DNA from: Candidatus Saganbacteria bacterium
Lineage (GTDB): Bacteria; Margulisbacteria; WOR-1; O2-12-FULL-45-9; XYB2-FULL-48-7
Reading direction: 5' to 3'
Assembly (NCBI GenBank): GCA_016939335.1
Contig: JAFGHC010000019.1
Location: 23,090 to 87,089, forward strand
Length of the DNA stretch: 64,000 nucleotides
Under the pieces are notes generated by a model, which saw only the letters and a list, made by a program, of their open reading frames with translations, had not been told where the DNA came from and ran no database searches. The translations under genes and the position numbers were made by a program. Positions within the stretch are counted from its first letter, which is position 1. Every line of letters begins with the position of its first letter. Positions 45,248 to 54,038 of the stretch are shown piece after piece.

Positions 45248-45453
45248 GGAGGGGTAGCAAAGTGGTCAAATGCATCTGACTGTTCCCGCCCTCATTAATA
45301 AATTAATAATACAGTGGAACGGCGGGATCCCGCGTACCACTATTTAAAACATTATTGTTCGCGGGAAAATCAGACGGCTTATGCCTTCGAAGGTTCTGCG
45401 CCGGATCGCCTATAAACCGCTGGCGCATCCGCCTCTGGCGGAAAATCCTTCCC
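45248..45453 (+). pseudogene. Decayed tRNA-Tyr copy split by two small insertions
   Basis: 45248-45283 equals the first 36 nt of the intact tRNA-Tyr, up to ctgactgt. 45367-45396 equals aaatcagacggcttatgccttcgaaggttc. 45443-45453 equals aaatccttccc. The acceptor 3' strand is then replaced by aacttc, so it cannot fold. Confidence 0.75.
45284..45366. mobile_element. 83-nt twin-hairpin element inserted in the anticodon loop of the decayed tRNA-Tyr
   Basis: tcccgcc-(AT-rich loop)-ggcggga directly abuts tcccgcg-(AT-rich loop)-cgcggga. The architecture and termini (tcccgNN...NNcgggatcccgNN...NNcggga) are the same as the element at 57220-57292. Confidence 0.55.
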
Positions 45454-45492
45454 AACTTCTTTTTCTGCTATAATAGATACACTTGGCGACCT

Positions 45493-45575
45493 GGAGGGGT
45501 AGCAAAGTGGTCAAATGCATCTGACTGTAAATCAGACGGCTTATGCCTTCGAAGGTTCAAATCCTTCCCCCTCCA
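45493..45575 (+). tRNA. tRNA-Tyr (anticodon GUA), class II with long variable arm; CCA not encoded
   Basis: Acceptor GGAGGGG/CCCCTCC. Anticodon arm tctga-CTGTAAA-tcaga. Variable arm cggcttatgccttc. T arm gaagg-ttcaaat-ccttc. Colinear with the E. coli tyrT architecture. Confidence 0.9.
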
Positions 45576-45736
45576 AATTCTTTATGAAGACGCTGAATAG
45601 TCGGCATATTTTCATAATATTTTCAAATTATCTTTGCCCATTACAATCATGCCTTCTAACAATTTGCTAACAAATAACAGGCCCATTACAATCGTCAAGC
45701 ATTCCTGTTCATTGGCCTGGTTTACGCAAGTTAGAT

Positions 45737-45863: not shown

Positions 45864-46034
45864 ATGGCTAAACCAATAACCCCAACACCAGTATTAGAAG
45901 AAAAAGAAGCACAATTATTTATTAAAGAAATTGATGATCCTAATGTGGCAAAGGCGTCAAAGGAAGAAGTATTAGAAGCCTATAAACTATTTGAGCGCTT
46001 AAAAAAGCAAACCGAATTCACTAATGCTCTTTGA
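45864..46034 (+). CDS. 56-aa candidate antitoxin of the GNAT toxin
   Basis: Below the ORF-track cutoff. RBS ggagggg upstream. Reads MAKPITPTPVLEEKEAQLFIKEIDDPNVAKASKEEVLEAYKLFERLKKQTEFTNAL. The stop overlaps the GNAT start by 11 nt, a classic toxin-antitoxin arrangement. It has no DUF1778-like sequence. Confidence 0.45.
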   Translation: MAKPITPTPVLEEKEAQLFIKEIDDPNVAKASKEEVLEAYKLFERLKKQTEFTNAL

Positions 46035-46572
46035 TAAGCTTAATTTCCAAAGGCTTAGCGCCCCTCCCAAAGGTTTAAGTTTTGATTGTTCGGATGAAGA
46101 TCTAAACGATTTCTTCAGTAATGCTTCTTACCCTCACCAACAAGAGTTAGTTGCGGTTACTTATCTGTTTCTCGTGAAAAACACGCATAGGGTGGCCGCA
46201 TATTTTAGCCTATTAAATGATGCCATTAAAGCAAACGCTTTCCCCGAAATTAACCAAAGCGTTCCCCCCGAAAAAAGATATCGCTCAGTTCCGGCGGTTA
46301 AGATCGCCCGCTTAGGGGTTGACAAAGAATTCCAAAGGAAGCATCTTGGAAGCGAAATTATGTCGCTACTCAAATATTGGTTTGTTTACAATAACAAAAC
46401 CGGCTGTAAGTTTATTTTGGCTGATGCATACAACAAGAAAGGCGTTATTGAGTTCTATCAAAAGAATGGGTTTACCTTTTTAACCGAAAAAGATAAAGAC
46501 AAAGAGACAAGACAAATGAAGCTTGATTTGAAACCATTTGCGTTAAGGATGAGAGAGTTGTATTTAATCTAA
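46024..46572 (+). CDS. GNAT-family acetyltransferase toxin (TacT/AtaT/KacT-like)
   Basis: FDCSDEDLNDFF..., VAAYFSLLNDAI, PAVKIARLGVDKEFQRKHLGSEIMSLL (the Q/R-x-x-G-x-G/A acetyl-CoA site) and ADAYNKKGVIEFYQKNGF. This order of blocks is typical of tRNA-acetylating toxins. Confidence 0.7.
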   Translation: MLFDKLNFQRLSAPPKGLSFDCSDEDLNDFFSNASYPHQQELVAVTYLFLVKNTHRVAAYFSLLNDAIKANAFPEINQSVPPEKRYRSVPAVKIARLGVDKEFQRKHLGSEIMSLLKYWFVYNNKTGCKFILADAYNKKGVIEFYQKNGFTFLTEKDKDKETRQMKLDLKPFALRMRELYLI

Positions 46573-46885: not shown

Positions 46886-47476
46886 TTGAGGTTTCTTGCG
46901 GACAGTTCCTTCGTCCTTTCTGTTTTCCAGCCAACGGCACCCTTCCACACGATTTCTCTTGATTTCTTTCGCATGCTGACAAAAAATGGGAAAACTTTTT
47001 TTTGTAATATAACCACTGAGCATGAGGTTTTGGGGAACATTAGGACTGCGCTCCTTAAAGATTGGGCGAAAAAAGAGGGGTTGTTTAATGGGAAGAAGTT
47101 ACAAAGGAATCAAATTGAGTCGCGGATTATTTGCCCCGCACTAAAGAATGGCAAGAGGGCTGATTTAATAAGGCATTTAAAGACAAACATTAGCGTTGAG
47201 ATTAATAGGGTCAACCTATTATTCCCATATTTATCTTGGAATGCAATAAGTGGGCCAGCAAATAGGGGGCGGCTTAGCGTCAATAACCTCATAGAATATA
47301 TGGGTGAATATTTATTTGATTCTTCCGATGCAATGATAGCTAATTTTTCTCTTTCTAGCTCACATACAAATGGCATTGTAACCTGCGATAAGGCGTTTAT
47401 TCGCTTGAAAGACGAGGAAGAGATTTATCTTCCTGAAAAGAATCTAAAAGCCTACAAAAGAATGGCTGGCGCTTGA
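46886..47476 (+). CDS. PIN-like (VapC-like) nuclease domain protein with a large internal insertion
   Basis: Acidic residues are in the expected order: FLADSSF (first Asp), TTEHEVLGN (Glu), SSDAMIANFSL (third Asp), IVTCDKAFIRL (T-x-D-x-x-F). About 100 aa lie between motifs 2 and 3. TTG start. Confidence 0.45.
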   Translation: MRFLADSSFVLSVFQPTAPFHTISLDFFRMLTKNGKTFFCNITTEHEVLGNIRTALLKDWAKKEGLFNGKKLQRNQIESRIICPALKNGKRADLIRHLKTNISVEINRVNLLFPYLSWNAISGPANRGRLSVNNLIEYMGEYLFDSSDAMIANFSLSSSHTNGIVTCDKAFIRLKDEEEIYLPEKNLKAYKRMAGA

Positions 47477-47682
47477 TTAGAAATATTTTCTCCATAATCC
47501 GCATTAGTGTTTAGCTTGTAATCGATCTGTTTAGCCGCATTCTGCAAATGTTCGTTTGATAGGTGGGCATAGATTGTTGTTGTTTTTATATCTGTATGGC
47601 CAAGTAAGTCCTTAATGGTTAAAAGCGGAACTCCCTTATTCACCAAATGCGAGGCGTAAGTGTGCCGGAGCGTATGAAACCC
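47452..47682 (-). pseudogene. Tyrosine-recombinase (integrase) C-terminal fragment
   Basis: Reads GFHTLRHTYASHLVNKGVPLLTIKDLLGHTDIKTTTIYAHL (box II, catalytic His and Tyr). An in-frame TAG lies 9 codons upstream (47712-47710). No N-terminal or core-binding part is present. Confidence 0.75.
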
Positions 47683-47756: not shown

Positions 47757-48572
47757 ATGACAACAACGATAACAAATATAGCCAAGTACAAAGGGGATCT
47801 AAGCAAGCTTATAAGCGAGGGCGATTTGTTACAGATGGCTATGGAAAACGATTGCTTTCCAGAACAGATCAAAAAGCTCTGCAAAGGAGCTGGCAAAGAG
47901 TATACAGATTTAATAAAGCATTTGCCTAGTTTCTCTTCCAATTATCAAAGCTGGTATTCTGAATCGCTCGCCCTGATCAAGCAGCTACTCCATGATCGTG
48001 TAGCTGATTTTACAAGACTGTATGAAAAACCCAAGACCAAAAGAAAAGACATTACTCATGAGAACTATACTATCGAAGATTATTTGTTTGATCAGACAGC
48101 CCAGGATTGGAGCGGCCAAACAGTAGTAGGTCCCAGCGCGGCAATCCCTCGTTTCAGGCAACAATTAAACATACTCAAATCGGTCGAAAAGCGTTTTGAG
48201 AGTTCTCTTTTTGATATCAAACAATTAGTACAAGCTGATTTATTTGATACTGAACTAGAATCGGCGAAAGAATTAAACAAAAATGGTTTTGCGCGGGGAG
48301 CCGGAGCCATTGCAGGAGTCGTTTTAGAAAAACATTTATCTCAAATCAGTGACAATCATGGCGTAACAATTTCGAAGAAAGCGCCCTCGATTTCCGATTT
48401 TAATGAAAAACTGAAACAAGCGGGGATATACGAAACACCAATCTGGCGAAAGATTCAACACTTGAGCGACTTAAGAAATCTATGCGATCATAAAAAGAAG
48501 AAAGACCCCACTGAAGCCGACGTCAACGAATTAATCGGTGGCGTTGAAACAATTACTAAAACTCTTTTTTAA
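47757..48572 (+). CDS. HEPN-domain protein (C-terminal R-x4-H motif) with uncharacterised N-terminal ~170 aa
   Basis: C-terminus AIAGVVLEKHLSQI...KIQHLSDLRNLCDHKKKKDPTEADVNELIGGVE contains RNLCDH (R-N-x-x-x-H) in a helical context typical of HEPN ribonuclease domains. Confidence 0.55.
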   Translation: MTTTITNIAKYKGDLSKLISEGDLLQMAMENDCFPEQIKKLCKGAGKEYTDLIKHLPSFSSNYQSWYSESLALIKQLLHDRVADFTRLYEKPKTKRKDITHENYTIEDYLFDQTAQDWSGQTVVGPSAAIPRFRQQLNILKSVEKRFESSLFDIKQLVQADLFDTELESAKELNKNGFARGAGAIAGVVLEKHLSQISDNHGVTISKKAPSISDFNEKLKQAGIYETPIWRKIQHLSDLRNLCDHKKKKDPTEADVNELIGGVETITKTLF

Positions 48573-48648: not shown

Positions 48649-48703
48649 CTGTAAATCAGGCGACTTATGTCTTCGAAGGTTCAAATCCTTCCCCCTCCAA
48701 ATT
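48649..48703 (+). repeat. 55-bp direct repeat of the 3' half of tRNA-Tyr (att-like island boundary)
   Basis: ctgtaaatcaggcgacttatgtcttcgaaggttcaaatccttccccctccaaatt matches tRNA-Tyr from the anticodon loop to 3 nt past its 3' end. The only 3 mismatches are all in the variable arm. Confidence 0.8.
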
Positions 48704-48980
48704 TTGCTTCGCAAAAATTTAAGCAGAAGAATTAAGAATGAAGGGGGCCTCCCCATCAAGCAAAATTTCCTTAATCCTTCTACTTCACCTTAATCCTTGA
48801 GGCAGCAAGCGAGCGGAAGAAAAATACCATGTCCCGGAGCCGCCGCCCCCGGCGCGGAGGGCAAATCCATGGGCTGAGCCAGTCAATGCTCCCCCTATGC
48901 TGATTTCTAGTCGCCTTAATAAAACAGTCCGCCCAAAACACCCAAGCCGCTCAGCCCCCCCCCCTTACTTAAAACACCTA

Positions 48981-49008
48981 TTGACAAATTTATATATAAT
49001 GTTATAAT
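48981..49008 (+). promoter_or_regulatory. Consensus sigma70-like promoter (TTGACA-16-TATAAT) of the RHH/GHKL cassette
   Basis: ttgaca at 48981-48986, tataat at 49003-49008. It is followed by RBS taggaggga and the ATG at 49063. Confidence 0.5.
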
Positions 49009-49062
49009 TAATGCATTAGATGAATTGCTTAACTGCTTAATGAATACAACATAGGAGGGAAT

Positions 49063-50115
49063 ATGAGATACTTTATCGATGTGCGCCAAGATCAGCTAGA
49101 AACAATAAATAAGTTGATAGCGAGAGGGAAATATTCTAATCTGCCTCAATTTGCTCAGGCCGCAATTGATAATCAAATATATTTAGAGGGGGCAGAGGAA
49201 AATCATCCACCATCAAAGCTGAGAAAAACAAATCTATATAACAAGAACAACTTTTATGATGAGGTCGAAATACATGATAGAGATTTTAATAGCCTACTGA
49301 TGGTTCCGAGCAAGCTCCCGATTGCCGTCAAGCCCCCAACCTTTAAAGACCTGGGCTGCTCAATGTTTGGCAATGAAGAGGAGGCATGCTGGTTGTGGGG
49401 GCAAACAAACAAAATATTTCCTATAAAACTTGGGCTTCGCGTTCTCTTAGTTCTAACAAATGAATGGATTGAATTAGACGTATTTAAAAAGAAGGCTACT
49501 GAGGTTGCGATTGAATATGGCTACAGATTGCGCGCTTATGAAAATAAAGAGGGGGGGAGCAGGGACAGTAAAATATCTGCCGGGCTACCGGCGAATCTAA
49601 AAGCCGACAGCAGCCAGAAGCGCTACCAACTGCACTTTCTTGCGTATACTAGAAAAGACAATAAGCTGGATGGCGCAATGTCATACTTGCGATTTACCAA
49701 TATCAAAAAGAATGAAAAGGGGCGACCAATAATAGGCCTGACACAAGCCGGGATTGATTTTGCGAAAATAATTAGCCCGGTAATCGACCAGCAAAACTAT
49801 CAAACAAGTCTAAACATAGATGAAATCAATTATTATCTTAATCATGCTATCGAAAATGTTCGTGGCGAAGGGTCAGCAATATTATGGCTTCTTTCCACAC
49901 TTAACAAGGGGGTAAATAAAAGAGAAGAAATCAATGCCGCCATTAGAGATAAATATAGATGGGGAGCGTCTGCCGCCGTAATTAACACTCAGCGATCAGG
50001 CCTGATGTCGCGCATGTATGAGTTGGGACTTATTCTTAAAGAGAAGGATGGGATTAATGTTAATTATGGCGTTTCAAAAGCGGGGGAAAAACTTTTAACC
50101 GATATAGGTGCTTAG
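49063..50115 (+). CDS. DNA-binding protein: N-terminal ribbon-helix-helix plus two winged-helix-like modules (350 aa)
   Basis: RYFIDVRQDQLETINKLIARGKYSNLPQFAQAAIDNQIYLE fits the strand-helix-helix pattern of CopG/Arc. RPIIGLTQAGIDFAKI and MSRMYELGLILKEKDGINVNYGVSKAGEKLL look like wHTH recognition helix plus wing. AT-rich codon usage. Confidence 0.5.
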   Translation: MRYFIDVRQDQLETINKLIARGKYSNLPQFAQAAIDNQIYLEGAEENHPPSKLRKTNLYNKNNFYDEVEIHDRDFNSLLMVPSKLPIAVKPPTFKDLGCSMFGNEEEACWLWGQTNKIFPIKLGLRVLLVLTNEWIELDVFKKKATEVAIEYGYRLRAYENKEGGSRDSKISAGLPANLKADSSQKRYQLHFLAYTRKDNKLDGAMSYLRFTNIKKNEKGRPIIGLTQAGIDFAKIISPVIDQQNYQTSLNIDEINYYLNHAIENVRGEGSAILWLLSTLNKGVNKREEINAAIRDKYRWGASAAVINTQRSGLMSRMYELGLILKEKDGINVNYGVSKAGEKLLTDIGA

Positions 50116-50125
50116 GGAGCTTGCC

Positions 50126-52402
50126 ATGGATAACAGAAAATTACTTGAATCACTATTATTATCAGAAACAGAAGACGAGGTGGACAAGATTGTAACGACA
50201 AATGTAGTATTCCAAAAGGAAGATAATTGGAAAAAATACGGTGCCCTCGAGAATAATTGGGGCTCCGTGGGGAGCCAACAGGACGAGGCGTCGTCTGCCC
50301 TGGTAGAGAAAATTGTTAATTCAATAGATGCCTTGCTTCTTCTGAAATGCAACCAAATAGGCATTGACCCGAAATCCAGCAGCGCGCCCGCCGACATGTT
50401 CCTTGCCGCAGAAAGATTCTTTGGCGTAAAACAAAATCGATTGCATGAATTGAGCGGCAAGCGGCTTTCTGAGCTTGCGCAAAATATTCAGCTAATTGCG
50501 ACTGGAGAAAAGGGGGCGGATAAATACCCCTCCCTGGCCATTGCCGACCTTGGCGAAGGACAAAATCCCAGCGAATTTTGTACCACCTTTTTGTCTCTAC
50601 ATAAAAGCAATAAAATGAGCATCCCCTTTGTGCAGGGCAAATTTAATATGGGCGGAACTGGCGTTGTTCGATATTGTGGCAAAAAATATGGCTATCAATT
50701 ATTAATTTCGAAAAGAAATCCGGATTTGAAGGGCGCCGATGGGCTTTGGGGCTTTACATTAATTCGACGCCAAAGACCCACCGGAAACCGAAAGAATTCT
50801 GTAATACAATATTTTGCCCCCAGCGGCCTTATCCCAACATTGGATGAAAAATCCTTAGATTTATTACCACAAACAAAAGCCGAAAAAGCAGAACCTTATC
50901 AAAAAGCAATGGAATGGGGCACATATATAAAATTATATGAATATCAGATTAGGGAAAGATCAAGCATAATATTAGATTTATTTGTCACACTAAACAAGGC
51001 GCTTCATAGCATCGCATTGCCAATAAGATTAATTGAATGTCGTACCTATGGGGGGCACTCCCCCGAGATCAATTTAATCGGCTTAGACCAAAGACTTGAA
51101 GCTGACAGATCGGATCTATTAGACAAGGATTTCCCGGCAAGCAGCTATGCGGAATTGGGTCCCTTAGGGAAAGTCCGCATTACATATTATTTGTTTAATT
51201 ACGAGTTAACGGGCAAGCAAGCTGAGCGCTGGCTCGGGAGAGAGCCTATTTATTTTACTATTAACGGGCAAACACATGCCAGGCTCCCATCCTATTTTTT
51301 ATGCCGGCAAAACGTACGGCTTGACTACCTGGAAAAACACCTATTGATTCACATAGATTGCTCTGCGATTCCGAATGATTTGGTAGAAGATTTATTTATG
51401 AGCTCTAGGGATAGAATGGTGAAGGGCGTATTGAGAGATCAAATCGAAGATGATCTAGAGAAAATATTAAAAAGCCATACCGGATTATGCGAGAAAAACG
51501 AAGAATATCGGCAAAAGCGAGTGAAAAATAAAATCGAAGATGAAACAATTAAACTGGATGCATTAAACAAAATCATTTCGTCTAGCCCCATTCTTGCCAA
51601 GTTGTTTGGGAAGGGGATAAAATTAAGCAACCCTTTCATGCGTGGTCAAAAAGAGGCTCATTTCCAAGGCAAACGTTATCCAACATATTTCAGGATTGCG
51701 AAAAAACATGAGGGGGTGTTGCTTAAAGAATGCCCAACGCATGGCCATTGTGTAATATTATTTGAGACGGACGCACAGAATGATTATCTTACTAGACTTG
51801 ACGATCCCGGAAAATTGGAATATTCGGCAGGGAAGAATGTCAAAAATGTATTTTTATTTAACGGGCTTTTACATTTAGAATTCCACCCGAGAAAAGAATT
51901 CAAAGCTGGGGACAGAATTGACATTGAAGTAAAATTATCGTCTCCCGATGCCCCTGAAGGCTATTATAAACAAAATTTTCAAGTGCTGATCGTCCCCGTC
52001 CCAAAGGAACAAGAAAAAGGGAAAAAGAAAAAGAGAAGGCTGGATGCTGCAGGCTTGGCTTTACCCAAAATATACGAAGTCCATAAAGATGAGTGGGCGT
52101 CTTACTCGTGGGGAGAGGAAGATGCTATTGAAATAGATAAAACCGAAAGCAAAACGGACGCATTTATAAATATTGACAACATATATTTACGTAGAGAGTT
52201 GGACAAAGACTCGAAAAGCTCTGAAATAATAAAGGAACAATTTAAATGGGGGATGGTATTAGTCGCCCTAGGAGTTAAGGAAAAAATCGATGGCCTTGAT
52301 CATGAGGGGGACGCAAAGAAATTATTACAAGAAGTAACCCAAGGCATGTCTCAAGTGATCTTGCCTATAATTCGCTCTCTTAGCAAGCTTGATCAATATT
52401 AG
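50126..52402 (+). CDS. GHKL (Bergerat-fold, HATPase_c_3/MORC-like) ATPase with ~500-aa uncharacterised C-terminal region (758 aa)
   Basis: N box LVEKIVNSIDA (E-x-x-x-N-x-x-D), G1 box IADLGEGQN (D-x-G-x-G), G2-like QGKFNMGGTGVV. The ATG at 50126 has gggag 7 nt upstream. An alternative GTG at 50108 would overlap the upstream stop (50113-50115). Confidence 0.65.
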   Translation: MDNRKLLESLLLSETEDEVDKIVTTNVVFQKEDNWKKYGALENNWGSVGSQQDEASSALVEKIVNSIDALLLLKCNQIGIDPKSSSAPADMFLAAERFFGVKQNRLHELSGKRLSELAQNIQLIATGEKGADKYPSLAIADLGEGQNPSEFCTTFLSLHKSNKMSIPFVQGKFNMGGTGVVRYCGKKYGYQLLISKRNPDLKGADGLWGFTLIRRQRPTGNRKNSVIQYFAPSGLIPTLDEKSLDLLPQTKAEKAEPYQKAMEWGTYIKLYEYQIRERSSIILDLFVTLNKALHSIALPIRLIECRTYGGHSPEINLIGLDQRLEADRSDLLDKDFPASSYAELGPLGKVRITYYLFNYELTGKQAERWLGREPIYFTINGQTHARLPSYFLCRQNVRLDYLEKHLLIHIDCSAIPNDLVEDLFMSSRDRMVKGVLRDQIEDDLEKILKSHTGLCEKNEEYRQKRVKNKIEDETIKLDALNKIISSSPILAKLFGKGIKLSNPFMRGQKEAHFQGKRYPTYFRIAKKHEGVLLKECPTHGHCVILFETDAQNDYLTRLDDPGKLEYSAGKNVKNVFLFNGLLHLEFHPRKEFKAGDRIDIEVKLSSPDAPEGYYKQNFQVLIVPVPKEQEKGKKKKRRLDAAGLALPKIYEVHKDEWASYSWGEEDAIEIDKTESKTDAFINIDNIYLRRELDKDSKSSEIIKEQFKWGMVLVALGVKEKIDGLDHEGDAKKLLQEVTQGMSQVILPIIRSLSKLDQY

Positions 52403-52454: not shown

Positions 52455-52482
52455 TTGACACCGACGGGACAGGGAGTATAAT
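52455..52482 (+). promoter_or_regulatory. Consensus sigma70-like promoter (TTGACA-16-TATAAT) for small ORF copy B
   Basis: ttgaca at 52455-52460, tataat at 52477-52482. Confidence 0.45.
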
Positions 52483-52514: not shown

Positions 52515-52643
52515 ATGGCAGAAAAAGTCGCGAAGGTTGGTGTCAAGAGAGTCGAAGGATATCTTTATTTCGTCGACAAGCAGGGGGATATTTCCCGCGC
52601 CAAGATGGCCCGCGGCCGGAAAAGATCCAAAAAGCGCAGATAA
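52515..52643 (+). CDS. 42-aa basic protein, copy B (MAEKVAKVGVKRVEGYLYFVDKQGDISRAKMARGRKRSKKRR)
   Basis: Paralogue of 44992-45120 with its own promoter and an RBS (gggagg). It differs at 4 residues (RK to KR, A to E, K to R). Confidence 0.6.
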   Translation: MAEKVAKVGVKRVEGYLYFVDKQGDISRAKMARGRKRSKKRR

Positions 52644-52780
52644 TTTTTCCTAACAATTAACGGCTTACGCTCTTGCCTTATGACAATAGTTGTAAGTCGT
52701 TAGTTGTTAGTTGTAGTCCGCCAGACGCTTAAAGGACGCCGGCGGACGAGTTGTAGCGAGCGGAGCGAGCGTGTTGTTAG

Positions 52781-53395
52781 TTAATCAGCAAACGGCTTGA
52801 TCCGGCGGTTCTCGTGCTTGTCGTAGCGGGCCGTGCTCCAGGCGACCAGGCGCGCATGCTGGCCCGGCTTGTAAGTCGGCGGATTGAGCTTCGACAGCCT
52901 GAACTGTTCGTCAAATTGCCTCTCTTTTTCGACCGGCATCCGGTCGATCCCCGCGAAGATCGCCCGCAGCGTCCCGATGTATCGCTTGAAGGGCGGCACC
53001 CCCTTGTAGACGTAAACGAAGTCCTTGAGATCTTTGGTCCGGCGGTATTTGCGGTACCACTTGCCGGTGGCGATGATCTCGCTGGTCCGGTAGATATTAT
53101 TATAAATGGAAGAAAACCGGCTCGCGCCGTTGCAGACGCCGGTCAGATTATAGCTGCCCTTTGGGTAATTTCGGCCGAAAGTGCTCTCCGCGCCGGCCAC
53201 CGCCAGATAAAGCCGGTAGTCGAGGCCGAACCGGTCGGCGCAATAGAGGATCTCGTGGACATGCCCGCGCAGGGGGCTGCCGGGATACCGGGCCAGAAAT
53301 TTCTTGAGCTTGACGGCGCGCAGGTCGCGCGCCTCCCCGCTCCCAACCAGCGCCGCCAGCAGCAAGACGATTATTATTGATATTTTTTTCATCAT
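52781..53395 (-). CDS. Secreted protein, possible peptidoglycan hydrolase (lysozyme-like/glucosaminidase-like)
   Basis: Signal peptide MMKKISIIIVLLLAALVGSGEA. LAVAGAESTFGRN...YNLTGV resembles the catalytic Glu region of glucosaminidase/SLT folds. Confidence 0.35.
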   Translation of the reverse strand: MMKKISIIIVLLLAALVGSGEARDLRAVKLKKFLARYPGSPLRGHVHEILYCADRFGLDYRLYLAVAGAESTFGRNYPKGSYNLTGVCNGASRFSSIYNNIYRTSEIIATGKWYRKYRRTKDLKDFVYVYKGVPPFKRYIGTLRAIFAGIDRMPVEKERQFDEQFRLSKLNPPTYKPGQHARLVAWSTARYDKHENRRIKPFAD

Positions 53396-53486
53396 GTTAC
53401 TGCTTCGTCCGGACCGCGCCGCAATTTCAATTATACCCTATTTTCGTCTTTACATTAATGGCCCGCACGACTATAATGAGGTCCAT

Positions 53487-54038
53487 ATGATGCGCAGGAA
53501 CCCGCTCTTCAAAAGTTTCTTTTGTTTGTTCCTCCTGCTGGCTTTTTTGCTTGGCGGCTCGCTGATCCCCGACCGCCCGGCCGAGGCCAAGGCCAAAAAG
53601 ATCGTCCGCAAGATCAAAAAAAGCAAAGTCAAACGCAAGGCTAAAAAGACGTTGGTCAAGAAGAAAGCGGTCAAAAAGAAAGCGGTCAGGAAGAAAGCGG
53701 TCAGGAAGAAAGTGGTCAAAAAAGTGCGCCGGGTCGCCGTGAAAAAACCCGCGCCTAAAAAGCCCGCGAAAAAGGCGTTTGTCGTCTCAAACGATGCCGC
53801 GTATTACACGCTTCCCTCCTCGGGCACCATCACCCAAACCTTTGCCATCGAGGAAGGCGTCGGCGATCCCGAGGTCGACGCCCTGGTCGGCGCCATGAAG
53901 TCGCTCGGCGCGCTCGACTCCTACGCCGACACCAGCCGGAACACGCTGACCGTCAAATACAACGCCGCCAAACTCTCCTCGGCCCGCATTATTAAAAAAC
54001 TGAAAAGCCTCGGTTACACGGCCAAGCGCCAGGGTTAA
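53487..54038 (+). CDS. Secreted protein with Lys-rich low-complexity segment and ferredoxin-like (HMA-like) C-terminal domain
   Basis: Signal peptide MMRRNPLFKSFFCLFLLLAFLLGG. KKIVRKIKKSKVKRKAKKTLVKKKAVKKKAVRKKAVRKKVVKK. C-terminus ...TLTVKYNAAKLSSARIIKKLKSLGYTAK. tataat and gagg lie upstream. Confidence 0.45.
   Translation: MMRRNPLFKSFFCLFLLLAFLLGGSLIPDRPAEAKAKKIVRKIKKSKVKRKAKKTLVKKKAVKKKAVRKKAVRKKVVKKVRRVAVKKPAPKKPAKKAFVVSNDAAYYTLPSSGTITQTFAIEEGVGDPEVDALVGAMKSLGALDSYADTSRNTLTVKYNAAKLSSARIIKKLKSLGYTAKRQG

Follow-up and report, generated by a model that had tools for sequence, protein, structure and literature searches.

The 64,000-nucleotide stretch analyzed here, hereafter called the window, belongs to a Candidatus Saganbacteria bacterium (assembly GCA_016939335.1, contig JAFGHC010000019.1, positions 23,090 to 87,089 of the forward strand) and carries a two-gene cassette in which a putative DNA-binding protein, here named G1, is followed by a GHKL-type ATPase. 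We give an even chance to the reading that this cassette was acquired horizontally and belongs to a widespread, still unnamed defense family related to restriction-modification (R-M), in which G1 acts as an autoregulator or DNA adaptor dedicated to GHKL proteins. Judged from its sequence, the cassette is a credible candidate for an anti-phage or anti-plasmid module. The combination of GHKL and S5 modules and its linkage to R-M genes are already known from the paraMORC proteins, whereas the G1 partner and the extent of the unannotated family appear to be new. The parts of the cassette, all on the forward strand, are as follows.

48981 to 49008, forward strand: consensus sigma-70 promoter (TTGACA at 48981-48986, a 16-nt spacer, TATAAT at 49003-49008; 12 of 12 positions, with a TG extension)
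49011 to 49045, forward strand: candidate operator between the -10 box and the ribosome-binding site (palindrome TAATGCATTA at 49011-49020 and a second one, TTAATGAAT, at 49037-49045)
3 nt 5' of ATG 49063, forward strand: AGGAGG ribosome-binding site of the G1 gene
49063 to 50115, forward strand: G1 gene, 350 amino acids
50116 to 50120, forward strand: GGGAG ribosome-binding site of the second gene
50126 to 52402, forward strand: gene of the GHKL-type ATPase, 758 amino acids

The second protein is built as a Bergerat-fold ATPase followed by a transducer domain. Its features, with residue numbers, are listed below.

50273 to 50815, forward strand: Bergerat (GHKL) ATP-binding domain, residues ~50-230
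50300 to 50332, forward strand: N box, residues 59-69
50540 to 50563, forward strand: G1 box, residues 139-146
50636 to 50662, forward strand: G2 box, residues 171-179
50816 to 51421, forward strand: transducer (S5-like) domain, residues ~231-432, from the structure model and Foldseek
51386 to 51421, forward strand: loop EDLFMSSRDRMV with the invariant R428, at the end of the transducer domain
51428 to 52399, forward strand: C-terminal half, modeled as long helices (435-493), a beta-rich part (520-625), a beta-alpha-beta-beta element (648-682), and a helical hairpin (696-753)

The N box (ExxxNxxD), G1 box (DxGxG, a motif distinct from the protein G1), and G2 box (GxxGxG) occur in the order that defines GHKL proteins, and E61, N65, D68, D141, G143, G145, G171, G176, and G179 are invariant across 196 homologues. 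In the transducer domain, the same homologues share K269, R306, N380-G-Q382, and R428. The AlphaFold2 model, obtained from 41 sequences with a predicted local distance difference test score (pLDDT) of 85.9, was compared with known structures by Foldseek, and the matches covered about 400 to 470 columns against ATPase plus transducer (N+M) regions at E values from 2e-10 to 4e-6. The best match was TopoVI-B (2e-10), followed up to 1e-8 by HtpG, Hsp90, GRP94, and TRAP1, the 43K fragments of GyrB and ParE, and MutL LN40; MORC2 was matched at 3.6e-6, and the lowest root-mean-square deviations (8-9.5 Å) were those of HtpG, Hsp90, GRP94, and TRAP1. The succession of a Bergerat fold and a transducer domain is that of the GHL/MORC branch. 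The original prediction, which was made from the sequence alone, had located all three boxes correctly, but its statement that no S5-fold signature could be recognized is superseded by the model and the Foldseek matches. The loop EDLFMSSRDRMV (EDLFMSSRDR) resembles what we take to be the catalytic loop of Hsp90, EDLPLN(I/L)SRE, and this likeness is treated as a lead only.

Searches with the single sequences and with family profiles of both the ATPase and G1 returned nothing significant in Pfam, NCBIfam, PADLOC, PHROGs, or PDB sequences, and in PADLOC-DB 2.0 no family was reached by either protein at E<=1. The window ATPase has no HATPase_c_3 match at E<=1, and 12 of 41 relatives have sub-threshold matches to this model (E>=0.0018, below the gathering score). 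Nor was a description of this family found in the searchable literature on GHKL anti-phage proteins, paraMORC, bacterial MORC, and PDC-M33. The expectation that neither protein belongs to a characterized or catalogued system was thus borne out, as was the earlier statement that no nuclease is recognizable, because residues 433-758 match nothing in Pfam, NCBIfam, PADLOC, or PDB sequences. This C-terminal region contains a conserved polar patch composed of T548, D549, N552, Y554, R557, N579, N682, D684, N685, and E691. The departures of the window protein from the family consensus are common to its whole clade, from which we conclude that the gene is intact.

The ATPase is found in at least 596 species-representative genomes of Bacteria, including the Candidate Phyla Radiation (CPR), and of Archaea (methanogens and Methanophagales), and the family has more than 2367 members in a metagenome protein set, all of which are labeled "hypothetical". 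Its distribution is patchy and island-borne, the loci being chromosomal islands; relatives are present on 8 of 72,556 plasmids and in none of 50,697 phage records.

The surroundings of these relatives are rich in R-M and defense genes, in agreement with the defense-island setting that had been proposed. Linkage was counted at 82 genome loci from the ATPase side and at 84 loci from the G1 side. N6_N4 type II methyltransferases account for 16 of 135 nearest neighbors of the ATPase, and clustering showed such a gene abutting the 3' end of the ATPase gene at 17 of the 82 loci, at distances from -7 to +109 bp; it is convergent at 14 of these, follows on the same strand at two, and lies upstream at one. 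Nine metagenome loci with both G1 and the ATPase show the same arrangement. The methyltransferase-linked ATPases form one clade in a neighbor-joining tree, whatever their upstream partner, and an added domain was considered for them and rejected, since their extra length is scattered over small insertions. At some loci (L079, L062, and L064), the ATPase and the methyltransferase are the sole constant pair, which implies that the ATPase polypeptide itself is the restriction-like component. No conserved helicase or endonuclease was found beside the ATPase relatives. Methanobacterium formicicum shows the gene order HNH-ATPase-HsdM-HsdS-HsdR, and HsdM-like genes lie near the ATPase in Virgibacillus. 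Further contexts include DndB, Mrr_N, GmrSD, RadC, PIN, HepT/MNT, NYN, Zeta, Fic, and VapBC, as well as Dcm-Vsr, Shedu, TIR, DUF4917, SIR2, DUF262, PAPS reductase, and integrases.

The G1 protein was modeled by AlphaFold2 from a 38-sequence alignment (pLDDT 88). Its N-terminus (residues 1-46) is similar to a ribbon-helix-helix (RHH) fold, with an extended segment and helices at 9-20 and 27-46; residues 47-72 form a disordered linker, and the remaining globular part is basic (isoelectric point 9.3) and consists of two three-helix units, each with a beta-hairpin wing (212-227 and 324-337), so that residues ~100-350 have the makeup of winged helices. Foldseek returned winged-helix DNA-binding proteins alone, namely TubR, SmtB/ArsR, AspA, and PadR, with a probability of ~1.0 and target-normalized TM scores of 0.5-0.6. 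The original prediction of an RHH segment followed by two winged helix-turn-helix (wHTH) segments is in keeping with the model, the weak Foldseek matches, and the Arc/MetJ-type label that the Joint Genome Institute gives to some homologues; for the RHH part, only the predicted beta-alpha-alpha layout and this label speak. The putative recognition helix (304-320) contains the invariant residues T309, Q310, R311, G313, and R317, and two invariant clusters are seen, W110-W112-G-Q114 and the helix V306-I-N-T-Q-R311-x-G. Clustered at 50% identity, the family falls into ~1200 groups. The best 150 representatives are all standalone proteins of at most 473 amino acids (~330-390 at full length), and no fusion to a large protein or to other domains occurs among them.

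The linkage between G1 and its partners is asymmetric: G1 needs a GHKL-type partner, whereas the ATPase does not need G1. From the ATPase side, G1 lies immediately upstream at 14 of the 82 loci. These belong to several distinct ATPase clades, and the two genes frequently overlap by 4 bp. The pair is kept as neighbors in many phyla, which favors the original prediction. G1 is present in five of the seven closest ATPase relatives; this was confirmed directly for the Omnitrophota pair and L171, while the pairings P0002/P0163 and P0005/P0200 are deduced solely from contigs of equal length. Elsewhere, the upstream genes encode proteins of 128-144 amino acids, Mrr_N, HTH_17, or DndB proteins, or methyltransferases, and a PIN (VapC-like) nuclease gene with a small gene precedes the ATPase at 9-11 of the 82 loci. 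From the G1 side, the downstream partner is an ATPase of the window type (A1) at 21-22 of the 84 loci, a 207-213-amino-acid protein with a ~730-amino-acid protein of family C at 22-23, and a 600-850-amino-acid protein of family B at 25. No partner was seen at 15 loci, at 11 of which the available downstream sequence is shorter than 500 bp. Altogether, a large GHKL-type protein (A1, B, or C) is encoded downstream of G1 at about 69 of the 72 informative loci. Family C matches HATPase_c_3 (E 3e-5 to 2e-3) and, weakly, the N-domains of TRAP1 and GRP94. The match of family B is to the PADLOC candidate PDC-M33A (E 1e-14 and 1e-23), and its members share invariant boxes (QN, G, and GxxGxG) arranged in the Bergerat order. 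Downstream of the family B gene, two or three small genes and then a gene for a C5 methyltransferase are usually found. The original notion of a two-component system thus holds in the conserved pairing and needs to be loosened in that the ATPase often stands without G1 and G1 also heads operons of two other GHKL-type families.

Some of these loci deserve separate mention. In nine loci from unrelated phyla, the PIN gene lies mostly 9-37 bp before the ATPase gene (182 bp in one), and PIN could be the nuclease arm in such loci. At about ten loci, mainly in CPR/Patescibacteria, G1 is replaced by a helical protein of 70-87 amino acids with the consensus ...ERFKRIATxRTNKIL..LRxLGNCSNKSxYEYT..., whose gene frequently shares 4 bp with the start of the ATPase gene. 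Comparison by hhalign detected no relationship of G1 to the alternative upstream partners (the w210, 76-aa, 132-aa, and 128-aa families). Seven G1 genes head operons of five or six genes that encode a family B protein and proteins of ~210-260, ~75-150, and ~365-412 amino acids; the ~365-412-amino-acid product was confirmed by Pfam as a C5 (Dcm) methyltransferase in L131 only, convergent Dcm and Vsr genes occur instead in L085 and L086, and one operon member is DUF6339-like. These operons look like a second, uncharacterized R-M-like system. In the Methanophagales locus L036 (1079-9090), G1, an A1-type ATPase, a 790-amino-acid protein, and a family C GHKL protein are encoded in a single operon, which places two GHKL families under one G1. 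Three Chloroflexota chromosomes (L028, L069, and L080) carry, after the ATPase gene and along with conserved upstream neighbors, a gene for a conserved protein of 941-973 amino acids without a family match; it overlaps by 4 bp in L028 and L080, and in L069 a methyltransferase and a 216-amino-acid gene lie between.

The promoter of the cassette is one of just two perfect sites in 4.1 kb, and together with the AGGAGG before ATG 49063 it matches the consensus promoter and strong ribosome-binding site described originally. The coordinates of the two tightly coupled genes were likewise confirmed, with the G1 stop codon TAG at 50113-50115 and a 10-nt gap before ATG 50126, where relatives frequently overlap by 4 bp. 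The alternative GTG start at 50108 that had been considered is unlikely, because the alignment of homologues begins at the first residue encoded from ATG 50126. In addition to the candidate operator, AATGTT is found inside the promoter spacer region (48998-49003). Regions upstream of G1 genes were reduced to 37 representatives with less than 60% G1 identity, and motif counts were compared with those of shuffled sequence, as given below; the enrichment is suggestive only, because it was gauged against mononucleotide shuffles and at loci related to one another.

TTGACA upstream of G1 genes: observed at 25 of 37 loci, 2.9 expected from shuffles
TTGACATTTT upstream of G1 genes: observed at 7 loci, 0 expected from shuffles
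AACATT/AATGTT upstream of G1 genes: 26 occurrences observed, 8.3±2.8 expected
TTAATG upstream of G1 genes: 20 occurrences observed, 8.8±3.0 expected

The window carries these enriched elements between the -35 box and the ribosome-binding site. The conserved upstream elements, together with the nearly invariant putative recognition helix, suggest that G1 binds sites of the TTAATG and AATGTT types and thereby regulates its own synthesis at a conserved operator.

Several features indicate that the cassette was acquired from elsewhere. The GC content is 0.40-0.42 (38-43%) across an island at 45.0-52.4 kb, and about 0.60 in the surrounding chromosome; this difference and the adjoining tRNA-Tyr gene with its att-like repeat argue for a foreign origin. 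The boundary features are as follows.

45492 to 45576: tRNA-Tyr gene
48649 to 48703, forward strand: att-like direct repeat comprising 55 nt of the tRNA-Tyr 3' half, 95% identical to 45525-45579

The repeat is the att-like boundary of a neighboring first islet, and the cassette begins just past it. The cassette had been placed in the most AT-rich part of the window; it does lie in the low-GC island next to the tRNA-Tyr repeat, but the lowest-GC kilobase is 46-47 kb (GC 0.377), outside the cassette. The island ends at ~52410, where the GC content climbs beyond the cassette stop codon and the next gene is a small native one that has its own promoter; a repeat search found no third att copy near 52.4 kb. 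A degraded methyltransferase gene was sought 3' of the cassette, and none was found.

The remaining island sequence and its borders show further features. A degenerate copy of the tRNA-Tyr 3' half (67%) lies immediately upstream of the tRNA gene at 45363-45417 and may be the trace of an older integration or duplication. The first islet, from tRNA-Tyr to the repeat, carries a GNAT-toxin-like pair, an integrase remnant, and a protein with a HEPN-like motif. Directly after the tRNA gene (45864-46572), a 56-amino-acid open reading frame (ORF) overlaps the gene of a 182-amino-acid GNAT acetyltransferase (Pfam Acetyltransf_7/1) in a GNAT-toxin/antitoxin layout. The integrase of the islet has decayed to a 64-amino-acid C-terminal remnant of the tyrosine type at 47455-47646 on the reverse strand (PF00589, E 1e-6). 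Two island proteins, of 196 amino acids (46886-47476) and 271 amino acids (47757-48572), have no family match, and the latter contains RNLCDH, a HEPN-like Rx4H motif as far as its sequence goes. A run of ten C residues is found at 48955-48964, about 17 nt 5' of the -35 box of the cassette. Beyond the island, the second perfect TTGACA-16-TATAAT site (52455-52482) precedes a very basic 42-amino-acid ORF at 52517-52645 in native high-GC DNA, and a predicted 244-amino-acid protein with KKAVRKKAV-type Lys/Ala/Val repeats is encoded at 53304-54038, where an overlapping long antisense ORF makes the gene call uncertain.

On the reading of an R-M-related defense family, the second gene would encode the working part, a dimeric GHKL plus transducer ATPase built like Hsp90, MutL, or MORC. 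Its C-terminal region would hold the dimer together, and ATP would close the N-terminal gate, whereby DNA could be clamped or remodeled; the C-terminal half would carry or recruit an activity that harms foreign DNA. The most likely task of G1 is to repress its own operon by acting on the strong consensus promoter via TTAATG and AATGTT-type sites, and G1 may also license the ATPase or load it on DNA. In the methyltransferase clade, the convergent type II methyltransferase would mark self DNA, while the clade of the window, which lacks it, would need some other basis for sparing its own DNA or depend on G1 keeping the operon tightly repressed.

A number of results weigh against this interpretation. 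The 64-kb window contains no N6_N4 methyltransferase, and the mechanism of classical R-M, with the linked methyltransferase seen at 17 of the 82 genome loci and the nine metagenome loci, is therefore not applicable to the window copy. No motif of a nuclease or other effector was found in the 758 residues of the ATPase, and its conserved C-terminal polar residues fit no nuclease signature known to us. The ATPase is frequently accompanied by other upstream genes or by none, as in L169, which is 65% identical to the window protein and lacks a partner; G1 is consequently not obligatory for it. On the side of G1, no Pfam RHH match was obtained, and the wHTH matches in Foldseek are weak (E 0.03-0.2). 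The apparent operator enrichment was measured in AT-rich DNA against mononucleotide shuffles and at mutually related loci. Finally, families A1, B, and C are not significantly alignable by hhalign, either whole or as N- and C-terminal halves (A1 against B and C, E 0.01-0.2), although their Bergerat boxes line up, and the presumed GHKL nature of family B is drawn from its motifs only.

A bolder version of the proposal, which we regard as rather unlikely, would make G1 and the GHKL clamp a new, nuclease-free form of prokaryotic immunity. G1 would recognize DNA and load an Hsp90/MORC-like ATP-gated dimer, by which foreign DNA would be entrapped or compacted and thus silenced or stalled, which would amount to an equivalent, in bacteria and archaea, of the MORC silencing of eukaryotes; G1 would then be an adaptor adopted independently by three unrelated GHKL families. 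Another view, that G1 is simply a transcription factor of the controller (C) protein kind with no physical or mechanistic link to an ATPase that acts alone, is unlikely too, though rated slightly above the other alternatives. It would account for the constant first position of the G1 gene, for the conservation of the promoter and operator-like motif whichever family lies downstream, for the ATPases that occur without G1, and for the lack of G1 fusions among the best 150 representatives. It is difficult to reconcile with the restriction of G1 to GHKL-type operons at ~69 of 72 informative loci; general defense regulators of the WYL/BrxR type, in contrast, precede many unrelated systems. The 4-bp overlaps, which imply stoichiometric co-translation, and the large conserved surfaces of G1 beyond a single DNA-reading head also speak for more than regulation. 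An addiction module similar to toxin-antitoxin (TA) pairs is an unlikely alternative, in which the ATPase would be toxic, G1 would be a large RHH-type antitoxin and autorepressor, and the module would stabilize the island rather than act against phages; at loci without G1, the neutralizer would be the small upstream protein or the methyltransferase. As is typical of type II TA pairs, the RHH-like protein is encoded first and its gene is translationally coupled to the next, the strong promoter and candidate operator fit such a module, the upstream partners of the ATPase are swapped freely, as in TA evolution, and TA genes are found nearby (GNAT in the window; HepT/MNT, Zeta, and VapBC elsewhere). 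Against this, G1, with 350 amino acids and tandem wHTH units, far exceeds known antitoxins in size, solitary ATPases without an upstream partner exist, and the tight convergent methyltransferase linkage of one clade is an R-M pattern; TA and defense roles can also coexist.

The two remaining accounts fare worse. A protein-directed chaperone or stress module, in which the ATPase would clamp client proteins as Hsp90 does and G1 would regulate it with no role in nucleic-acid conflict, is suggested by the structural matches at the lowest deviation, which are all of the Hsp90 kind (HtpG, Hsp90, GRP94, and TRAP1), and, as a lead only, by the likeness of the EDLFMSSRDR loop to the Hsp90 catalytic loop. 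We consider it improbable in view of the R-M and defense gene context, including a clade with an obligate methyltransferase, the patchy, island-borne distribution and foreign GC content, and the absence of a Pfam HSP90 match. Most improbable of all is a device for segregation or maintenance of a mobile element, in which G1 would bind a centromere, as TubR, AspA, and ParG do, and the GHKL protein would serve as the NTPase. TubR and AspA are indeed among the top Foldseek matches of G1, and the RHH fold is common in centromere-binding proteins, but the loci are islands in chromosomes, the surroundings of the cassette contain no array of centromere-like repeats, and the rarity of ATPase relatives among the plasmids (8 of 72,556) and their absence from the phage records (0 of 50,697) disfavor plasmid partition.

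Among known systems, the closest are the MORC/paraMORC ATPases, for which a GHKL+S5 architecture, R-M linkage, lateral mobility, and C-terminal extensions have been described (Iyer, Abhiman & Aravind 2008, PMC2292703). The present family resembles them in its GHKL and S5-type module, in its patchy, mobile distribution over bacteria and archaea, in its family-specific C-terminal extension, in the linkage to DNA methyltransferases and R-M islands, and in the ATP-driven manipulation of DNA proposed for both. It differs in that the window ATPase fails the HATPase_c_3 threshold, in that the two-gene operon of the window lacks an SF2 helicase, a RE-fold or Vsr endonuclease, and a methyltransferase, and in having the RHH/wHTH partner G1, which is not described in that work. 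The original prediction held that the architecture cannot be assigned to a named family. This is correct as far as matches to named families are concerned, but the methyltransferase-tied clade shows that the family adjoins the GHKL/paraMORC R-M concept (PMC2292703) and does not stand outside all known kinds. Hsp90, HtpG, TRAP1, and GRP94 provide the best overall structural match for the N-terminal and middle domains and share the three-part layout of ATPase, middle, and C-terminal domains; they are distinguished by the lack of any Pfam, NCBIfam, or PDB sequence match, by a C-terminal half unrelated in sequence, and by the R-M and defense context of the present family instead of proteostasis. 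MutL, with MutS and MutH, and TopoVI-B share the GHKL plus transducer fold, and the logic by which a DNA-recognizing partner recruits an ATP-gated clamp that controls a nuclease may serve as an analogy in the case of MutL. There is, however, no MutL_C or NCBIfam MutL match and no Toprim or Top6A partner, and G1 is unrelated to MutS.

GHKL ATPases have also been met in anti-phage contexts. VcSduA, a Shedu protein with an N-terminal GHKL domain, is a reported defense protein (PMC12137116), and proteins similar to PDC-M33A are, like the window ATPase, preceded by G1 homologues. The window ATPase nevertheless matches no PADLOC model and is unalignable with the PDC-M33A-like family, and an assignment to VcSduA/Shedu was rejected since it has no DUF4263 nuclease domain. 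CapK and CapS, a GHKL protein and a regulator encoded upstream of immune operons, were also considered and rejected, since the former is a small kinase of the anti-sigma type and the latter belongs to the STAS proteins (PMC13373217). With the C proteins of R-M systems and the RHH antitoxins, G1 shares the position of a DNA-binding protein encoded first, behind a strong promoter with operator-like repeats and before a potentially harmful gene; it is three to four times larger, has tandem winged helices, and is confined to GHKL-type operons.

The ATPase family is widespread yet absent from Pfam, NCBIfam, and PADLOC, and if it is a defense system, the catalogues have a sizeable blind spot. That G1 is strictly associated with GHKL-type proteins of three families that cannot be aligned with one another suggests a common principle in the control or loading of GHKL ATPases, and this principle could act as a genomic marker for further systems. 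The methyltransferase-linked and methyltransferase-free clades, having the same architecture, offer a natural comparison for the discrimination of self from non-self, and the cassette itself provides a minimal two-gene model for the action of a clamp on DNA. The family is also relevant to the long-standing idea that the MORC ATPases of eukaryotes arose from GHKL proteins associated with R-M.

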